The translations under genes and the position numbers were made by a program. Under the pieces are notes generated by a model, which worked only from the letters and a program-made list of their open reading frames with translations, did no database searches and was not told where the DNA came from. 64,000 nt of DNA from an uncultured Candidatus Saccharibacteria bacterium (GTDB lineage Bacteria; Patescibacteriota; Minisyncoccia; Phycocordibacterales; GWA1-40-21), in the NCBI GenBank assembly GCA_964513515.1, contig CAZEMP010000001.1, forward strand, positions 11,336-75,335, given 5' to 3'. Shown here in pieces: positions 3,111-45,982 of the stretch. How positions within the stretch are numbered: the first letter of the stretch is position 1; each line of letters starts with the position of its first letter.

Positions 3111-4040
3111 ATGAATTTTAATATTTACTTAAAAGAGAATAAGGACACAATAGTATCAGTAATTTTTCTATTAATTATCTTGTCTTTATTTCTTTATCCA
3201 AGATCAGAAAAAGAAATAGTATCATTAAAAACAAATCAAATTATTGAGAAAAATAAGACAGATTATCAGTCTTTTTTAAATGAGGTGGAAGCAAAATCTT
3301 TTTATGTTTATGATATTTTGGAAAAAAAGCCTATTTTCTCTAAAGATGAGCATGCCAAATTGCCGCTTGCATCAATAACAAAGCTGGTTGCTGGGTTGGT
3401 TGTCCTAGATATAATGCCTGAAACCACAGTTGTTACTATAACTAAAGATGACTTAGCTATGGAAGGAGATAGCAGATTATTTGTTGGAGAAAAATGGAAA
3501 CTAAAAGATTTGCTGGACTTTAGCTTAGTAACATCATCCAATGATGGAATGCATGCAATAGCTTCTACCTTAAATTATTATCAAACAGTAAATAATACTG
3601 ATACGATTAAAATAATGAATGAAAAGATTAAATCTTGGAATTTAAAAGACACTATTTTTATTAATGAGACTGGACTTGATATAGACGATAGTATGGGGGG
3701 TGCCTACAGTTCAGCATATGATGTAGCGATGATTTTGGAAAAGATCATAAGAGATAATCCTAGTTTAATATCAAGCACAAATAAACAAAAGGAAAATTTT
3801 GTATCTCAAAGTAATATTATACACGCAGCATCAAATACAAATGTTTCATTAAATGATATACCAGGTTTGATAGCTTCAAAAACTGGTTTTACAAATCTTG
3901 CTGGTGGTAATCTTGCTATTGTTTTTGATGCAGGTTTTATGCACCCTATAGCTATTGTTGTTTTGGGATCAACTATAGACGGAAGGTTTTCCGATATATT
4001 GAAGTTACAAAGAGCAGCTTTAGAAAAACTTTCAGAGTAA
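3111..4040 (+). CDS. D-alanyl-D-alanine carboxypeptidase (S11 serine peptidase) with N-terminal TM anchor
   Basis: LPLASITKLVAG contains the SxxK active-site motif; SSND (SxN) follows; cell-wall gene neighbourhood. Confidence 0.6.
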   Translation: MNFNIYLKENKDTIVSVIFLLIILSLFLYPRSEKEIVSLKTNQIIEKNKTDYQSFLNEVEAKSFYVYDILEKKPIFSKDEHAKLPLASITKLVAGLVVLDIMPETTVVTITKDDLAMEGDSRLFVGEKWKLKDLLDFSLVTSSNDGMHAIASTLNYYQTVNNTDTIKIMNEKIKSWNLKDTIFINETGLDIDDSMGGAYSSAYDVAMILEKIIRDNPSLISSTNKQKENFVSQSNIIHAASNTNVSLNDIPGLIASKTGFTNLAGGNLAIVFDAGFMHPIAIVVLGSTIDGRFSDILKLQRAALEKLSE

Positions 4041-39640: not shown

Positions 39641-40044
39641 AAGATGTATGGTACAAAAATAATGAGACCTACTATTACAGCTAGAATTGCTGAAAGTAAT
39701 ACTGCTCCAGCAGCCACATCTTTAGTATCTTTTGCGTAAGGATGATATGTGGGCGAAGTAAGATTCATATCTATTTCTATCGCAGTATTGAAAGCCTCAG
39801 AAATAAAAACTATTCCAGAAACGATAAGTATCATTATCCATTCAATTTTTGTAATTTGAAAAAATATTCCTGCAGCTATAACAAAAACAAACATAGTGAA
39901 GTGTATCCATGCGCTATGTGTAGATTTCATAAAAATCCAAAGTCCCCTTCCAGCATGAGTAAGGCTCTCTGCTCTTTTTATAAAAGAAAACTTTTTTGAG
40001 ATACTTGCCACGTGTGAATTTTCACTTAATTTAGGTTTTGACAT
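39631..40044 (-). CDS. dgkA: diacylglycerol/undecaprenol kinase (DgkA family)
   Basis: Three TM helices; conserved SEAFNTAIE and GAVLLSAI segments. Confidence 0.65.
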   Translation of the reverse strand: MSKPKLSENSHVASISKKFSFIKRAESLTHAGRGLWIFMKSTHSAWIHFTMFVFVIAAGIFFQITKIEWIMILIVSGIVFISEAFNTAIEIDMNLTSPTYHPYAKDTKDVAAGAVLLSAILAVIVGLIIFVPYIFTN

Positions 40045-40059
40045 AGTTTTTATTTATTA

Positions 40060-40094
40060 AACCTGGATTGCTTCATTTCATTCGCAAAGACACA
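40060..40094. repeat. single-arm copy of repeat family 3 (AACCTGGATTGCTTCATTTCATTCGCAAAGACACA)
   Basis: Matches both arms of 27331-27407. Confidence 0.5.
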
Positions 40095-40198
40095 ATTCTT
40101 ATAAAATTCTTTACATGGTCGGTTTATTCATTAATAATCATTATATATTTAAAAAATAAATATATAGTAATTATATTAACTCAGCAAAAATATTAATT

Positions 40199-41560
40199 CT
40201 ACAGTGCCTTACGCTTAGATGGATCTGCATCAGGTTTGTACTCTACAAATTTAACTAACCCATCAAGTTTTTTTCTATCCTCAGCACTTTCAAGTTTGTT
40301 TATATAATAATATCTTAAAGCTCTTTGAAAGGTCTCAGTAATATTTCCAGCATAAAAATTTAGTACGAAATCATGGATACGTCGTGGTTCCATACGGTCA
40401 TCGTATGTAAATAATTGAGGTTGGTCCTCAGCGACTTGTCTATTTTTTACAAGCTCTTTTGCAGCTTTATGAAATTCAATATATTTTTTCAATATTTCAT
40501 TAATACCAGGAATTTCTCTTATTTGCTCTGGCCTTAAAACTTCTTTACGAGATTTAAGGAACATATCAGATGTAGCACCTTGTGATTCATATTTCCCATT
40601 AAATAAAGCATCAGTTGAAAGAGTAAATGTGGACTCTGGCAATTCAGTTGGTAATTTTTTATAAATCCATCTACGTAGCTGAGCTGGGTCAAGTGGTTCA
40701 CGTCCAAAAAAACCCTTACCTGGTGGATTCATAAGTGCGACTACCTTAGTTTTGCCTCTATTCACAGGTAGTACCTCTGAGGCGTCTTCAGAAAGAACTA
40801 TATCACCTCCACGCTCAAGAGCATCTAAAACTTCATGCAAACGAATAAGTATATTAGGCGCGGCTGCATTAAATTCATCTAAAATAATAATTTTAGTTTT
40901 TCCATCTTCTTGTCTAAGACCGCTCGTTACCTTACCATCTGCAAAAAAATACTCTGGATCATTTGGCTTATTTTTATTAGGATTCGGGACATATCTACCC
41001 ATCAAATCTTCAATGTCAGTACTTCCATTCAAATTTATATAATGCACTTCCCAACCAAGCTCAGCTGCCATTTTTCTAACAGCTGTCGTTTTACCAAGAG
41101 ACGTTCCACCCTCAACAATTATTGGTGATCCACTTAAAAAAGCAACTGCAATATCACGTTGAAGAGGTAAAGATAACCCCGTATCATTTATAAAATCTCT
41201 ATAATGCTCTCTTTTTGGTACAAACTTAGTATTATTTATTTTAGCTTTTTCTAAAACCACTCCTAAATAAGAAATATCTTTATCACTTTCATGAATCCCT
41301 TCTACTGGGACAATCTCAACAATAAACTTACCGCTTGCTGGATCAGCTGGATTTGTATCTTCCAATATCTTTACTCTATATGAATGTCCCGGCTCTGGTT
41401 TAAGAGAATTTTTTGAAAGAAAAATTATTTTTCTACCAGGTGCACTGCTCTTATATTCCTTTTCGCCGTCAGGCCTTATTTGTAGCACAAACATAACATC
41501 ATCAAGAAGTTTTTCTCCTGTTTCAGGGCCGAGTTCATGGCTAAGTTGATTTTCTGTCAT
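40199..41560 (-). CDS. MoxR-like AAA+ ATPase (AAA_5 type) with ~150-aa N-terminal extension
   Basis: Walker A GGTSLGKTT, Walker B IIILDEFN; sensor/arginine region conserved. Confidence 0.7.
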   Translation of the reverse strand: MTENQLSHELGPETGEKLLDDVMFVLQIRPDGEKEYKSSAPGRKIIFLSKNSLKPEPGHSYRVKILEDTNPADPASGKFIVEIVPVEGIHESDKDISYLGVVLEKAKINNTKFVPKREHYRDFINDTGLSLPLQRDIAVAFLSGSPIIVEGGTSLGKTTAVRKMAAELGWEVHYINLNGSTDIEDLMGRYVPNPNKNKPNDPEYFFADGKVTSGLRQEDGKTKIIILDEFNAAAPNILIRLHEVLDALERGGDIVLSEDASEVLPVNRGKTKVVALMNPPGKGFFGREPLDPAQLRRWIYKKLPTELPESTFTLSTDALFNGKYESQGATSDMFLKSRKEVLRPEQIREIPGINEILKKYIEFHKAAKELVKNRQVAEDQPQLFTYDDRMEPRRIHDFVLNFYAGNITETFQRALRYYYINKLESAEDRKKLDGLVKFVEYKPDADPSKRKAL

Positions 41561-41656
41561 GGCGAAATTATATATTATCTTCCATATTCTGTCTAGATAA
41601 AATTACATAGTTTAAAGAGCATGAAAACGTATATTTACTTGATTTTAATTTACTAT

Positions 41657-41978
41657 TGACAAATTTAACTATATTTGCTACTATGTTCCCAGATGGAAGT
41701 GGTGATAATCAGGATATCTACTTGGTTATTGGAGTACAGGAAACACACGAGAATGAGCGTAGTAGCTTGTTTGAGTGTTGAAGTACCCAGGTTACATACC
41801 TGACCTGGGTGGGGGTTTGGTTAGCCATACCAAACTAGTCGTGTCTCAAACTTGCCACGGGTTTGAGAACGATTTCCTCAATGTCTTCACGAATTAAGAA
41901 GACATTGAAAGGAAGGCCTCATAACTCTGGTTGTTATCAGAGATTGAGGTAGGGGGCACATAGTATGTGTCCTTTTTT
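41657..41978 (+). ncRNA. candidate structured RNA unit U1 (promoter TTGACA-16-TACTAT to terminator GGGCACA-TAGTA-TGTGTCC + T6)
   Basis: No ORF >=60 aa; multiple internal hairpins incl. GGTTTGG-TTAGCCATA-CCAAACT; transcript approx. 41691-41978. Confidence 0.4.
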
Positions 41979-42035
41979 CGTATATAAAATCTGAAATATA
42001 AATTTTAAGGCGACTATACTTTCTAGATAATAATA

Positions 42036-42209
42036 TTGACATTTCTTACATCTCTGCTATAATATGGAGGCTGTCTTGATTGGCTAGCCATGCCAGTCAT
42101 TGATTTCAAACCTAGCCAAGGTTTGAAATGACTGAAAACAGTAAATAAGTGTCGGGAAAGAGAAAGGGGCTACACACATGACTCGTTATGTGTGTAGCCC
42201 TCTTTAATT
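42036..42209 (+). ncRNA. candidate small RNA unit U2 (promoter TTGACA-16-TATAAT to 13-bp terminator GGGCTACACACAT...ATGTGTGTAGCCC)
   Basis: Transcript approx. 42070-42209 (~140 nt); contains TTGGCTAGCCATGCCAG hairpin motif. Confidence 0.45.
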
Positions 42210-42289
42210 ATCCGACTACTGAATGCTTAATAATTTTGGCTATAATCATATTTAGTCAGTTTCTCTCACTACAGTTAAGTACGTACTTA

Positions 42290-42499
42290 TTGACATTATC
42301 TTTTATGCTTGCTATAATAGTTTTAGAAGTCAAAGATATGGAGATAGTTGGCTAGCCATGCCAATTATATCTATTCAGTTAAAGTTAAGTAAATCGTTCT
42401 TATGGATATTGGTTAGCCATACCAATTTCCATCGAATATATGTTAAAAACATATATTCAAGGGGGCTATATAACAATGTTATGTAGCCCCTCTTTATTT
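42290..42499 (+). ncRNA. candidate small RNA unit U3 (promoter TTGACA-17-TATAAT to terminator GGGGCTATATAACA..GTTATGTAGCCCC + T-run)
   Basis: Transcript approx. 42325-42499; two copies of TTGG(C/T)TAGCCAT(G/A)CCAA hairpin. Confidence 0.45.
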
Positions 42500-42526
42500 A
42501 ATAAAATTTTGCAAATTTCTGGACAA

Positions 42527-42934
42527 CTACTCCTGATAAACTAAACCAGCATTAGATAATACATCCAAGTCATTTTTTTGTAATATGTTTATATTATCTT
42601 TTAAAACAAGATAAATTATGCAGCTATTATCATAATCTGGAGAGAGGGTCTTGGATGTCATTGTTTCTTTGTCAAAAATCTCAACTTGGCCGGTAGGATA
42701 TTGAACCATAAAATCATAAGCATCTTTAGACATATTTGTGTCAACAGAAAAATATATTTTTAAGGTATTGAATGCATTACTAATATTCTCTACTTTTTTA
42801 AATCCCTCGCCACTTAGTATGGATGAGTAATTTTCTAATTCTTCAAGATTTTTAGCTATAACTAAACTAACCTCTTTTTGCCCTATAGCAGTTTTTAGGA
42901 AATCAATAAATTCCTTTTCATTTGTCATATTCAT
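42527..42934 (-). CDS. hypothetical protein (possibly STAS-like/DUF4325-like)
   Basis: 135 aa acidic protein between VWA gene and noncoding region; family guess weak. Confidence 0.35.
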   Translation of the reverse strand: MNMTNEKEFIDFLKTAIGQKEVSLVIAKNLEELENYSSILSGEGFKKVENISNAFNTLKIYFSVDTNMSKDAYDFMVQYPTGQVEIFDKETMTSKTLSPDYDNSCIIYLVLKDNINILQKNDLDVLSNAGLVYQE

Positions 42935-42952
42935 ATAATTTAATATATTGTA

Positions 42953-45094
42953 CTAAAATGTATCGAAATCGGCAATGGCTGCCTTTATTATGCCTGCCAA
43001 TTTCTCTGCCATTTCCTCTACTTTTATGTCACCTATGCTATTTGGAAAATATGAAGTGACCTCGGCTGTTCCAGCTCCTATTCCTAAACCTACTAATTTT
43101 ATATCAGTTTTTTTCAGAATATTTTCTATAGACATCACCAATTCCTCTCCTGAATTAGGCTCTCCATCTGTTAAAACAATCAAAAACTTCTGATCTACTT
43201 TTTGTTTAATCAGATTTTTACTAGCATGACTAATTGCCCAACCGGTTTCAGTCGTCCCAGCGACATTACTTATCATCGTACCGATTTTCTCTCTTACTTG
43301 CTTCGACATCTGCACTCCGAAGGTTTGATATTCATATATTGGTTTACCACGATCATTAAAACCTAAAACCTCAAACTTTATAGATAAACGATTCAAAACT
43401 TCTGATAAAACAACCACAGCTTTAAAGGTCTCAATTATTTTTTCTCCTTGCATGGAACTAGATAAATCTACAAGTAGTGAAATAGCATAATCTTTTTCCT
43501 TAGGCATTTCTCTTTTTTGCCACGCCTTACTTTCCATAGGTGAAATAGATTTGGCCTTTTCTTGTATTCTTTTTCCTATATCAATCCTCTTACCTATTCT
43601 AAATCCTCCTTTCCACCCGCTCATTTTGCGATCAACAAAAATTTCTCTCAACTCACTTTCTAATCTATCAATAATAGGAAGAACTTCTCTACGCACCTTT
43701 TCATATATATTTCTATCATAATTCAGCTCATGCGCTATTTTTTCTTTCATTTTTTTCAACATCTCATCATTTTTGTCCGGCAAAATCCTTTCTACTCTTC
43801 TGGTCGGTTCTTTTGTATCTTTAATCGAGTCAATTTCAACCTCTTTTCCTGATCTTTTTTCAGGACTCTCAGATAATTTACCTTGCAATTCATCTGAAAG
43901 ATCTTTTTCAAATTTCTTTATAGTGGCTTTAGCTTTTTCTCCAATTTCTTTTTTCTTCTCATCTGGCAATAAATCAACATATTCTTTTATTTTTCGCTTA
44001 AGACCTTCAGAAAAATTGCTCATATCAATCGGCTTAGCAGGGTTTTCTTGCTCTGCCTTATCATTACTTTCCTCATCTGTTTTTTTATCACCATCTTTTG
44101 ACTTTAACTTTTCAGCTCTCTCTTTTTTGAGATCATCGATAGCCTTATCTAGTGCGTCTTCGAGCTCTTTTTGTTCATCAGGAGTTAATTGTTCTTTAAA
44201 TTCATCGGGTATTTTACCTCGATTCCTGCCGTCATTTTTATTTTCGCTCTCACCCTCACCTTTTTGCATATCTTTTAGAGCCTCTTGTTTTTTTTGATCC
44301 TCAATATCTTCCTCGATAAGTTTTTTAAATTCCGGCCACACTCTATCACGATTGATCTCGTAAGATGCCTTAGCATATTTTTTAATCAAAATTTCTCCAG
44401 AATCTGCATCTTCCATAGATGGATATGTCCACCAAGAATCTCTGGCAAACTCAAGGGTCGATTTTACTACAGCTTTCACATCATCAGGTAAGTCTGCTGA
44501 AAGCTCAGTGTCTTTTCCTTGCACTTCTCTAAACCACTGATTGATATATTCAAATCCAGCTTGCATAAAACGTGGATTTTGACCAAGTTCTGCGTTAGCC
44601 TTTAATACTGACTCAGCTTTCAATTTTTGCATTAAGGAGTAAGAAAAATGCATCTCCTCTTTAATTTTTGGGTAATTCTCAGCCAAAAAATTATTCATCC
44701 TTGGATCTTCTATCGCATTCATCATAAAAGAGAAGCCGGGCTGTGACCACTCTTTTAAAGAAATAAAATCTGTCCTACTGATTCTTCTATGACCTCCCTC
44801 ATGCGATATAACAAAATAAAGATACTCTATCGGTTTTTCTAGAAGATCTTTAGGATCAATTCTTATTATGTTATTCTTAAAATCCCAATGCCACCCATCC
44901 CCAGGTTTATTTAACTCAATAGGAATTTGAAAATCTTTACCTACAAAATAAACAAGTGGTGATAGTATTTGTTTTTTTTGCAATATTTCTTTCTGTTGCT
45001 CAGGTGTAAAAGTTGCTAAAATTTCACTTTCTGTTTTTGAACCAATAGCATGATACACATCCTCACCCTCTTGATTAAGCTGATGTTTTTCCAT
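42953..45094 (-). CDS. VWA-domain protein with N-terminal HExxH metallopeptidase-like domain and central charged coiled coil (DUF2201-like architecture)
   Basis: ISHEGGHRRI (HExxH) near N-terminus; C-terminal MIDAS DLSSSM...TETG...LTDGEP; partner AAA+ ATPase nearby. Confidence 0.6.
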   Translation of the reverse strand: MEKHQLNQEGEDVYHAIGSKTESEILATFTPEQQKEILQKKQILSPLVYFVGKDFQIPIELNKPGDGWHWDFKNNIIRIDPKDLLEKPIEYLYFVISHEGGHRRISRTDFISLKEWSQPGFSFMMNAIEDPRMNNFLAENYPKIKEEMHFSYSLMQKLKAESVLKANAELGQNPRFMQAGFEYINQWFREVQGKDTELSADLPDDVKAVVKSTLEFARDSWWTYPSMEDADSGEILIKKYAKASYEINRDRVWPEFKKLIEEDIEDQKKQEALKDMQKGEGESENKNDGRNRGKIPDEFKEQLTPDEQKELEDALDKAIDDLKKERAEKLKSKDGDKKTDEESNDKAEQENPAKPIDMSNFSEGLKRKIKEYVDLLPDEKKKEIGEKAKATIKKFEKDLSDELQGKLSESPEKRSGKEVEIDSIKDTKEPTRRVERILPDKNDEMLKKMKEKIAHELNYDRNIYEKVRREVLPIIDRLESELREIFVDRKMSGWKGGFRIGKRIDIGKRIQEKAKSISPMESKAWQKREMPKEKDYAISLLVDLSSSMQGEKIIETFKAVVVLSEVLNRLSIKFEVLGFNDRGKPIYEYQTFGVQMSKQVREKIGTMISNVAGTTETGWAISHASKNLIKQKVDQKFLIVLTDGEPNSGEELVMSIENILKKTDIKLVGLGIGAGTAEVTSYFPNSIGDIKVEEMAEKLAGIIKAAIADFDTF

Positions 45095-45911: not shown

Positions 45912-45982
45912 TGGGGGATCGTCTAATGGTAGGACGCGTGCCTTTGGCGCATGCAATCGGGGTTCGAGTCCCTGTCCCCCAG
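45912..45982 (+). tRNA. tRNA-Gln (anticodon TTG)
   Basis: Cloverleaf by eye: acceptor TGGGGGA/TCCCCCA, anticodon arm CGTGC-CTTTGGC-GCATG, T-arm CGGGG-TTCGAGT-CCCTG; 71 nt, no encoded CCA. Confidence 0.8.

Follow-up and report, generated by a model that had tools for sequence, protein, structure and literature searches.

The 966-bp spacer at 41561–42526 of a 64,000-nt stretch from an uncultured Candidatus Saccharibacteria bacterium (contig CAZEMP010000001.1; the whole stretch is referred to below as the window) lies within an operon encoding a midasin-like AAA_5 ATPase and a VWA-domain protein, and carries three tandem units on the strand opposite to these genes, each predicted to specify a small, hairpin-rich RNA between its own promoter and terminator. 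Homologous units are found beside the same ATPase gene in other bacteria of the candidate phyla radiation (CPR), where the stems of their hairpins covary around invariant loops, and where the ATPase carries an additional N-terminal domain with a modelled OB-like fold. The family, here named UAGCCAY-loop RNA, is new and absent from Rfam, with clear covariation and strict synteny, whatever its function. The favoured interpretation, to which a probability of about 45% is attached, is that the spacer consists of three diverged tandem paralogues of a small structured RNA gene of this family, whose products bind the OB domain as ligands and serve the AAA+/VWA machine as scaffold or regulator. Expression of the units, binding of the RNAs to the OB domain, and an effect on the machine are what we infer from the features described below.

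Three units on the strand opposite an AAA+/VWA operon

The spacer separates the AAA_5 gene (40199–41560, − strand) from a gene of 135 aa (42527–42934, −), with the VWA/CobT_C gene (42953–45094, −) upstream. An original prediction, made by reading the sequence, had claimed that this kilobase contains no open reading frame (ORF) of 60 aa or more, that it holds three non-coding promoter-to-terminator units antisense to the operon, and that their transcripts are rich in hairpins and belong to no recognisable RNA family. Each of these points has stood up to analysis. The longest ORF found by an ORF scan on either strand is 55 aa, and promoter and terminator scans recovered all three units, with every element displaced by 1 nt at most.

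All three units lie on the + strand (the operon being on the − strand), and each comprises a near-consensus promoter with a TG-extended −10 element, several hairpins, and an intrinsic terminator, all predicted. The promoter of the first unit, U1 (41656–41684; TTGACA, 17-nt spacer, TG-extended TACTAT; 10/12), exists as proposed, except that it starts at 41656 and has a 17-nt spacer, where 41657 and 16 nt had been given. It would drive the synthesis of an RNA of ~290 nt (41691–41982), with three 5′ hairpins, the hairpins designated H1 and H2, two more hairpins, and a terminator identified by the scan as a G+C-rich hairpin with a T-run (41951–41982; hairpin with T-run, 41951–41975). U2 has a 12/12 promoter (42036–42063; TTGACA, 16-nt spacer, TG-extended TATAAT) and a predicted RNA of ~140 nt (42070–42210) made up of H1, H2 and a terminator (42163–42209; hairpin with T-run, 42166–42201) that also scores on the − strand. 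The promoter of U3 likewise scores 12/12 (42290–42318; TTGACA, 17-nt spacer, TG-extended TATAAT), and its predicted RNA of ~175 nt (42325–42500) would contain two H1-type hairpins, one AT-rich hairpin, and a terminator (42461–42499; hairpin with T-run, 42461–42491) paralogous to that of U2.

Promoter-like sites scoring 12/12 number five in the entire window, two of them in the spacer, and eight terminator-like hairpins with T-runs occur in 40000–44000, compared with 1.9 ± 1.7 in shuffled sequences. Each predicted RNA folds into a series of local hairpins and lacks a terminal stem, with z-scores against dinucleotide shuffles of −9.1 for U1 (minimum free energy −119.2 kcal/mol), −7.7 for U2, and −8.2 for U3. 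A promoter and a Rho-independent terminator on the same strand, placed around a non-coding stretch and kept in relatives, are the marks of an independent σ70-dependent small RNA (sRNA) gene, and the units, as far as sequence can reveal, bear all of them. Rfam 15, with families such as Y_RNA, tRNA, tmRNA, 6S, SRP, RNase P, CsrB/RsmZ and the type III antitoxins, gave no match in 41561–42526 at gathering thresholds; with E-values up to 10 admitted, the best scores were 12–23 bits against thresholds of 36–298 bits, and these mostly aligned to the terminators. The spacer also has no tRNA or tRNA-like gene according to ARAGORN and RF00005, the only tRNAs of the window being tRNA-Gln at 45912 and tRNA-Asn at 58070. 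A type III toxin-antitoxin RNA of the ToxI kind, with tandem direct repeats of ~34–36 nt lying upstream of the toxin gene in its own orientation, is ruled out, as the repeats here are whole promoter-terminator units with a period of 255–270 bp, antisense to the adjacent genes.

The most conspicuous claim of the original prediction was a recurring stem-loop presenting TAGCCAT, of which four copies were indeed found within 1 nt of where they had been placed. The pattern TTGGYTAGCCATRCCA has exactly four matches in the 64 kb (41817, 42080, 42348 and 42409), all on the + strand and all inside the spacer; 0.08 are expected by chance, and four copies were reached in 0/100 shuffles. H1 of U1 (41814–41836, +) and H1 of U2 (42077–42099, +) both have an 8-bp stem and the loop UAGCCAU. 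The same loop is carried in U3 by H1a (42344–42368, +), on a 9-bp stem, and by H1b (42408–42426, +), on a 6-bp stem that becomes longer if a bulge is allowed. H2 of U2 (42103–42129, +) has a 10-bp stem and reads ACC-UAGCCAA-GGU, and forms a repeat family with H2 of U1 (41844–41868, +), the stem of which is CUCAAAC/GUUUGAG and the loop UUGCCAC(GG).

Homologous units and covariation in other Patescibacteria

Relatives were collected by searching with the ATPase and choosing homologues that cover its N-terminus. Homologous units, in the same place and orientation, are present in eight other lineages (L207, L208, L209, L214, L216, L219, L220 and L221), in which the spacer between the 135-aa-type and AAA_5 genes measures 159–593 bp; beyond these, the P0229 locus, known by its gap length alone, has 624 bp between the two genes. 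On the strand opposite the operon, each of the eight spacers displays TTGACA, a 16–17-nt spacer, a TG-extended −10, H1, H2, and an intrinsic terminator, to which extra hairpins are optional additions. H2 usually takes the form RCC-UAGCCAY-GGY, and sometimes has an 8–10-nt loop containing CCGCCAUA. Judged by these shared elements, other CPR lineages have the same RNA family in this position. Three lineages are without the RNA (L001/2, L003–5 and L006), and in these a gene of 136–138 aa is followed, after 3–4 nt, by the AAA_5 gene (686–754 aa); neither a hairpin scan nor the covariance model described below found such a hairpin in L001–L006. Sequence comparison thus makes the 966 bp of the window correspond to an insertion relative to the RNA-less homologous operons.

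Copy number varies, with three units in the window, two tandem units in L208 and L221, and about two to three or more in L209, where further units are situated downstream of AAA_5 and upstream of VWA. In L221 a degenerate repeat of the opening ~45 nt of AAA_5 coding sequence stands ahead of the second unit (3640–3740, −), showing that new copies arise when the AAA_5 5′ end and the RNA gene are duplicated in tandem as one block. A comparable relic is seen in the window, where 42015–42035 is similar to 41585–41605 (81% identity).

A covariation check on the relatives, with slid and shuffled controls and with RNAalifold, gave a positive result. In an alignment of H1 and H2 from 11 sequences, 80% of cells are paired, compared with 31–44% when the partners are slid; double changes occur in 16/19 pairs, and the observed covariation was reached in 0/500 shuffles. 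A second set, consisting of 23 hairpins from nine lineages selected for at least three closing pairs, has 82% of cells paired (24–45% when slid), double changes in all nine pairs, and 72 compensatory cells where 28.5 ± 4.2 are expected, with the loop TAGCC invariant; both samples, at 11 and 23 sequences, are small. RNAalifold predicts H1 independently, with compensatory changes in 8/8 pairs. The covariance model, R1, built from 11 sequences among which the units of L219, L220 and L221 were not used, finds the units of these three loci at 19.8–27.7 bits (E = 1e-2 to 1e-4). In the window it matches 41810–41872 (U1, 54.3 bits), 42073–42133 (U2, 57.5 bits), and 42341–42383 together with 42402–42460 (U3), with nothing found elsewhere in the window and nothing in the RNA-less loci. 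On the RNA-sense strand, the spacers contain 7.5 copies of the hexamer TAGCCA per kb, compared with 0.16 per kb in the remainder of these loci, a ~45-fold enrichment. The G+C content of the RNAs ranges from 27 to 69% among the lineages, and outside the loops the sequence has fully diverged, while the loops have remained invariant.

By the general yardstick of compensatory change, these alignments identify a conserved structured RNA. The family is defined, on the sequences compared, by H1, (G/A)GY-UAGCCAY-RCY, and H2, RCC-UAGCCAY-GGY, both with covarying stems and invariant 7-nt loops, which confirms the TAGCCAT hairpin as the key feature across lineages. The comparison also discriminates between two suggestions made for it at the outset, namely a protein-binding loop in RNA, which is favoured, and a DNA operator of the form TTGGC-N7-GCCAA, which did not survive. 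The arms change freely among relatives (e.g. GTGATCAGC/GCTGTTCAC and GGCCTCTGGC/GCTAGAGGCC) and the centre is fixed; as this is the reverse of a protein-bound DNA palindrome, the operator is refuted. A REP-like (repetitive extragenic) palindrome was likewise rejected, the centre rather than the arms being conserved and all four window copies lying in this one spacer.

More broadly, the spacer could yield no RNA product of its own and be a DNA-level element (an operator, an insulator or bidirectional terminator block, or a repeat of the REP or miniature inverted-repeat transposable element type) or what is left of a decayed coding sequence. As DNA, too, the hairpins form inverted repeats, the U2 terminator scores on both strands, and gene callers have put a 73-aa ORF over the spacer of L205 and a 172-aa ORF over that of L208. 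Even so, this explanation is highly improbable: a DNA element would have to account for variable arms around fixed centres, for pairs of promoter and terminator kept in the same orientation in every lineage, for a motif that is not dispersed in the window, and for G-U pairs that favour the RNA-sense strand. The called ORFs are not conserved, there being none in the window, L207, L209, L214, L216, L219, L220 or L221. The assignment of the strand is of moderate strength, with 14 G-U pairs against 8 A-C mismatches, and with 8/11 units folding better in the proposed sense.

Outside these operons, a 16-nt version of the motif was sought in GTDB genomes and IMG/VR; at this length it is too short to be specific across 596 Gb, and the matches listed were all isolated chance ones in unrelated taxa, with no flanking similarity. 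A stricter H1+H2 pattern, applied to metagenome contigs, re-found the organism of L207 along with one chance match and nothing else, and was absent from the viral contigs searched. Among the matches listed, four IMG/VR contigs (L149, L159, L165 and L190) share a hairpin with an 8-bp stem, gtattggcTAGCCATgccagtac, and one Pseudomonas sp. locus (L060) has an 11-bp stem around TAGCCAT. These hairpins are probably unrelated, because they have no further similarity to the window.

The ATPase N-terminal domain and the possible roles of the RNA

The ATPase (453 aa; Pfam AAA_5, E = 2.5e-13) had been described as MoxR-like. It does belong to the AAA_5 proteins of that class, but is midasin-like rather than a generic MoxR, its closest solved structure being midasin/Rea1 (E = 6.9e-38), with CobS and NorQ at ~1e-3. 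The AAA_5 domain and the adjacent VWA/MIDAS protein together confirm a MoxR/midasin-type AAA+/VWA context. The protein aligns to residues 34–397 of its RNA-less relatives at 70–72% identity, is without the ~300-aa C-terminal extension of most relatives, and has ~55 extra N-terminal residues compared with the RNA-less ones. That the spacer might be decayed N-terminal AAA_5 coding sequence was rejected, as the extra length of the relatives is C-terminal and residue 89 of the window protein aligns to their residue 34.

At the N-terminus of the window ATPase (about residues 18–85; coding region 41306–41509, −) lies a predicted S1/TRAM-like OB-fold domain, which among the loci compared occurs only in the RNA-associated homologues. 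This domain of ~65 aa is encoded in 9/9 RNA-bearing lineages, compared with 0/3 RNA-less lineages, and has the signature KEYxSSxPxRKI...PGxPYxVxxxEDTxPxDPxSGKxxVEIIP. The AlphaFold2 model is a six-stranded β structure with a core pLDDT (the per-residue confidence of the model) of 85–90, which makes this a candidate S1/TRAM-like domain, with an OB-like fold of a type that binds RNA in other proteins. A profile of the domain collected 131 clusters at 50% identity, in which it is mostly N-terminal, in proteins of 75–4,500 aa; AAA_5 is present in 5/10 of the cluster proteins checked, and the viral contigs searched yielded no relatives. In P0132, an AAA_5 homologue, a domain of this type follows the AAA module (residues 414–502), and other non-orthologous architectures among the clusters include P0241, P0252, P0267 and P0270, of ~1,400–1,500 aa, and stand-alone proteins of 100–180 aa.

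The position beside AAA_5, kept in nine lineages, and the lack of the RNA in RNA-less operons argue, at the level of sequence, for a functional link. Invariant loops amid general divergence, at least two loops per RNA, amplification, synteny with AAA_5, and co-occurrence with the OB domain together favour an RNA that is bound by the N-domain of the ATPase. In the mechanism proposed, each unit would be transcribed alone from its TG-extended σ70 promoter, opposite to the VWA/135-aa/AAA_5 operon, and end at its intrinsic terminator, with the RNA gene always head-to-head with the AAA_5 start in related CPR bacteria. The invariant loops would be protein-binding sites, and their likeliest partner the S1/TRAM-like OB-fold N-domain of exactly those AAA_5 ATPases that adjoin an RNA gene. 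On a hexameric AAA+ ring, six of these OB domains would be exposed, and an RNA with at least two identical loops could be a multivalent ligand for them. In that role it may scaffold the midasin/MoxR-like ATPase and the VWA(MIDAS) protein that partners it, serve them as an adaptor, or switch them on and off. The multiplication of units, whether in tandem or across the operon, fits a trans-acting product whose dose matters. As a side effect, transcription of the RNA gene and of AAA_5 is likely to be coupled or competing, because the divergent promoter of the RNA, a strong one, lies against or across the start codon of AAA_5.

Several considerations weigh against this interpretation. RNA expression and the contact between RNA and protein are both deduced from sequence, the antisense strand folds as well or better in 3/11 units, the N-domain also occurs in 131 other protein clusters, and the RNA-less operons evidently work without the RNA. 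MoxR-type AAA+ proteins are, to our knowledge, remodellers of proteins and not of RNA. The co-occurrence of RNA and N-domain may, moreover, stem from one clade through a single ancestral insertion, in which case 9/9 versus 0/3 does not amount to nine independent observations.

The main rival is a cis-antisense or promoter-interference device, in which the RNA genes would mainly control AAA_5 and uncouple it from the VWA and 135-aa genes, through RNA polymerases that compete or collide during transcription, or through an RNA-mRNA duplex cut by RNase III, the transcripts being perfectly complementary to any read-through operon mRNA. The units overlap the intercistronic spacer of the operon, so that transcripts would overlap only if the operon mRNA reads through, which is plausible because, read in the direction of the operon, the terminators of the RNAs lack a U-tract. 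The orientation is antisense in every case, the RNA-less operons have both genes in one transcription unit, and in 8/8 other lineages the −35 of the proximal unit falls between −6 and +9 nt relative to the AAA_5 ATG, with TTGACATTATA in several loci creating an opposite-strand TATAAT 9–13 nt before the ATG. In the window, the −35 of U1 is 96 nt from the AAA_5 start, and there is therefore room for a predicted AAA_5 promoter (41567–41595, −; TAGACA, 17-nt spacer, TATAAT; 11/12), the −10 of which ends 6 nt before the ATG, making the AAA_5 mRNA leaderless or nearly so. This promoter does not overlap U1, which counts against interference, and such a device also leaves unexplained the three tandem copies of the window, of which one is near the ATG, and the L209 units that flank the operon, past AAA_5 on one side and before VWA on the other. 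Antisense pairing needs no given sequence, so the invariant UAGCCAY loops on covarying stems, maintained at G+C contents of 27–69%, would find no explanation in it. Control in cis as the principal role is thus somewhat unlikely, and the antisense regulator or insulator originally suggested, although possible, is insufficient alone, the invariant loops remaining unaccounted for. This device and the binding of the RNA by protein could both hold at once.

Alternatively, the RNAs might act in trans without any relation to the operon proteins, either as sRNAs with a UAGCCAY seed directed against RUGGCUA sites or as CsrB-like sponges, with the spacer serving as a permissive landing site. Several identical loops, strong promoters, and tandem amplification do resemble sponges or multi-seed sRNAs, and the complement of the loop contains AUG, with AUG-GCU start regions as an example of a target. 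RTGGCTA target sites, however, are not enriched in the window (15 outside the hairpins, compared with ~11 expected, one of them at a start codon), the motif is nowhere else in the 64 kb, and neither the place beside AAA_5, conserved in nine lineages, nor the absence of the RNA from RNA-less operons would be expected, all of which renders this alternative unlikely. A UAGCCAU within the window AAA_5 mRNA is not conserved at other loci.

A special case of the favoured interpretation is that the hairpins mimic the anticodon arm of tRNA-Gly(GCC), as a decoy, sensor or substrate for an anticodon nuclease or modification enzyme, with the TRAM-like domain as reader. H2 of L208 and L216 reads CGACC-UAGCCAC-GGUYG, and the H2 loop of U1 is UUGCCAC; the corresponding arm of E. 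coli tRNA-Gly(GCC), the sequence of which was verified, is CGACC-UUGCCAA-GGUCG, and is identical to H2 in 14–15/17 positions. Both have a 5-bp stem and a 7-nt loop with GCC at positions 3–5, and GCC and A are invariant at positions 3–6. This likeness of H2 is an attractive but weak lead, noticed post hoc and through comparison with an E. coli tRNA rather than a CPR tRNA-Gly. Loop position 2 is A (22/23 hairpins) or C, not the universal U33, the H1 stems are unlike that of tRNA-Gly, L209, L220 and L221 have variants with 8–10-nt loops (CCGCCAUA), and ARAGORN and Rfam give no tRNA-like match, which leaves mimicry quite improbable as the explanation of the family. A bolder form of the favoured interpretation, put forward tentatively, would regard the MoxR/midasin AAA+/VWA machine as a ribonucleoprotein, with the RNAs as dedicated subunits or adaptors on its OB domains and the loops perhaps as mimics of this anticodon arm.

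Genomic context and comparison with known systems

The VWA protein (713 aa; 42953–45094, −) has an HExxH (HEGGH) region at its N-terminus, joined by an acidic linker to a C-terminal VWA/MIDAS domain that is CobT_C-like (VWA E = 4e-14) and that matches the midasin MIDAS domain, CobT and NorD in a PDB profile search. It has hundreds of homologues at 50–61% identity, the named sources of which are mostly Patescibacteria, Magasanikbacteria, and unclassified ‘bacterium’; the single match above that range is to the source genome of the window itself. The HEGGH motif, at about residues 95–105, is invariant within a conserved N-terminal region, and suggests a metallopeptidase-like module joined to the VWA domain via the acidic linker. 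The 135-aa product of the middle gene (42527–42934, −) is predicted to be a P-loop/AAA-like α/β domain without Walker motifs; the ubiquitin-like or RNA-binding folds considered for it were discarded in favour of this degenerate domain.

PADLOC recognised no known defence system. In several loci of the relatives the operon adjoins Fic, RadC, restriction-modification, and diversity-generating retroelement (DGR) genes, the last comprising bAvd and a reverse transcriptase; Fic, restriction-modification and DGR genes are all missing from the window locus. The DGR (bAvd + RVT_1) lies just downstream of AAA_5 in many relatives (L001, L003–L006, L205–L207, L214 and L220), and the C-terminal extension of AAA_5, ~300 aa in length and missing from the window protein, may be a DGR target. 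One study (PMC7159879) describes DGR-linked vWA-MoxR conflict systems, of which this neighbourhood is reminiscent. That the RNA might itself be a DGR component was rejected, as it is kept in the window, L208, L209 and L219 without DGR genes in the stretches examined, and as it is located at the 5′ end of AAA_5 and not at the variable or template repeats (VR/TR).

Two further regions of the window are of a similar kind. On the − strand, 53550–54410 holds three more ORF-free promoter-to-terminator units, between a dnaX-like gene (52500–53531) and dus (54394–55434), with promoters at 54408–54381, 54093–54066 and 53752–53725 (11–12/12), and terminators at ~54150–54100, 53805–53767 and 53619–53589. 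Rfam has no match for them even at E-values up to 1; divergent housekeeping RNAs and new sRNAs are the possible identities. On the + strand, 50550–52470 contains three tandem paralogous units with a period of 716–742 bp and near-consensus promoters at 50554, 51267 and 51961. The first two share a conserved 5′ hairpin (50623–50683 and 51339–51399), and terminators are found at 51153–51185 and 51893–51924. Each unit has an ORF of 134–144 aa with no Pfam match, the ORFs overlap on both strands, and the G+C fraction is 0.41–0.44, compared with ~0.33 for the window.

Few chaperone systems are as widespread, or as poorly understood, as the MoxR-type AAA+ ATPases and their VWA partners, and the characterised examples of which we are aware all act on proteins or metal centres. 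CPR bacteria are uncultivated and have tiny genomes, and rarely keep a kilobase of non-coding DNA without reason. A literature search found no description of this RNA or of any RNA partner of MoxR/VWA systems, nor of such an RNA link with CPR bacteria. If the machine is indeed a ribonucleoprotein, UAGCCAY-loop RNA would be the first RNA cofactor of the MoxR/midasin chaperone class and part of a lineage-specific ribonucleoprotein of CPR bacteria, and bacteria would have a parallel to eukaryotic midasin with its role in remodelling a ribonucleoprotein, the ribosome. The hypothesis is directly testable, with a short RNA, obvious critical nucleotides (UAGCCAY), and a candidate binding module of 65 residues. 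We place the RNA among dedicated small structured RNAs partnered with a neighbouring protein, a kind that is known, although the family itself is new.

Cis-encoded antisense RNAs inside operons, of the GadY/gadXW type, are likewise transcribed from the opposite strand of an operon spacer with their own promoter and terminator. The present RNA differs from them in the conservation of structure and loop beyond the needs of antisense pairing, in its tandem copies, and in the copies outside the spacer in L209. The CsrB/RsmZ sponges, and the thrS operator, which mimics the anticodon arm of tRNA-Thr, resemble it in design, as several hairpins show the same short loop to a multimeric protein, with the loop fixed and the stems covarying. 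The loop here is, however, UAGCCAY rather than the GGA of CsrB/RsmZ, with two to three loops per RNA and no Rfam match, and unlike the thrS operator the RNA has a stand-alone gene and is not an mRNA leader.

Among solved structures, the ATPase is nearest to midasin (Rea1/Mdn1), and the VWA domain is like the midasin MIDAS domain and CobT, which sets the pair beside midasin and the MoxR-vWA pairs CobS/CobT, NorQ/NorD, CbbQ/CbbO, and RavA/ViaA. Midasin itself acts on a ribonucleoprotein, the pre-60S ribosome, according to the study already cited (PMC7159879). There is one AAA module per polypeptide here, compared with six in midasin. The literature search found neither a dedicated RNA nor an OB-fold RNA-binding domain for the known MoxR-vWA pairs, from which the present system also differs in the HExxH region of its VWA protein and in a third subunit, the degenerate AAA-like 135-aa protein.

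The Ro60 (TROVE + vWA)/Y RNA system shares with the window a gene for a small structured non-coding RNA beside that of a vWA protein. In RYPER (Rsr/Y RNA/PNPase), Y RNA serves as the tether between the Ro protein, with its vWA domain, and the KH/S1 domains of the exoribonuclease PNPase; the locus described here likewise combines coding capacity for a vWA protein and an S1-like domain with the gene of a dedicated RNA. The vault is another vWA-associated ribonucleoprotein, containing vWA-bearing PARP4, TROVE-bearing TEP1, and vault RNA. Membership of the bacterial Y RNA/Ro60 (Rsr) group is nevertheless excluded for the window, as TROVE was not detected in the VWA protein (Pfam gave VWA and CobT_C, and the PDB profile search CobT, Midasin and NorD only) and as the long terminal stem with its Ro-binding bulge is absent; neither Y_RNA nor YrlA was matched in Rfam, the RNA comes from an antisense gene with a promoter and terminator of its own, and it is a MoxR/midasin-type AAA+ ATPase, not an exoribonuclease, that bears the S1-like domain.

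Rho, in turn, is a ring-forming ATPase with an N-terminal OB domain and six RNA-binding sites on one face, an arrangement like that proposed here. Its OB domain reads C-rich YC dinucleotides, beside which may be set the conserved loop core GCCA. Rho is RecA-type rather than AAA+, and is not known to have a dedicated RNA gene or VWA partner, and the likeness is not extended to RNA translocation, for which the CPR ATPase offers no evidence. By analogy, Ro60/Y RNA and Rho are nonetheless the nearest counterparts of the UAGCCAY-loop RNA and its neighbouring ATPase, in a functional rather than a homologous sense.

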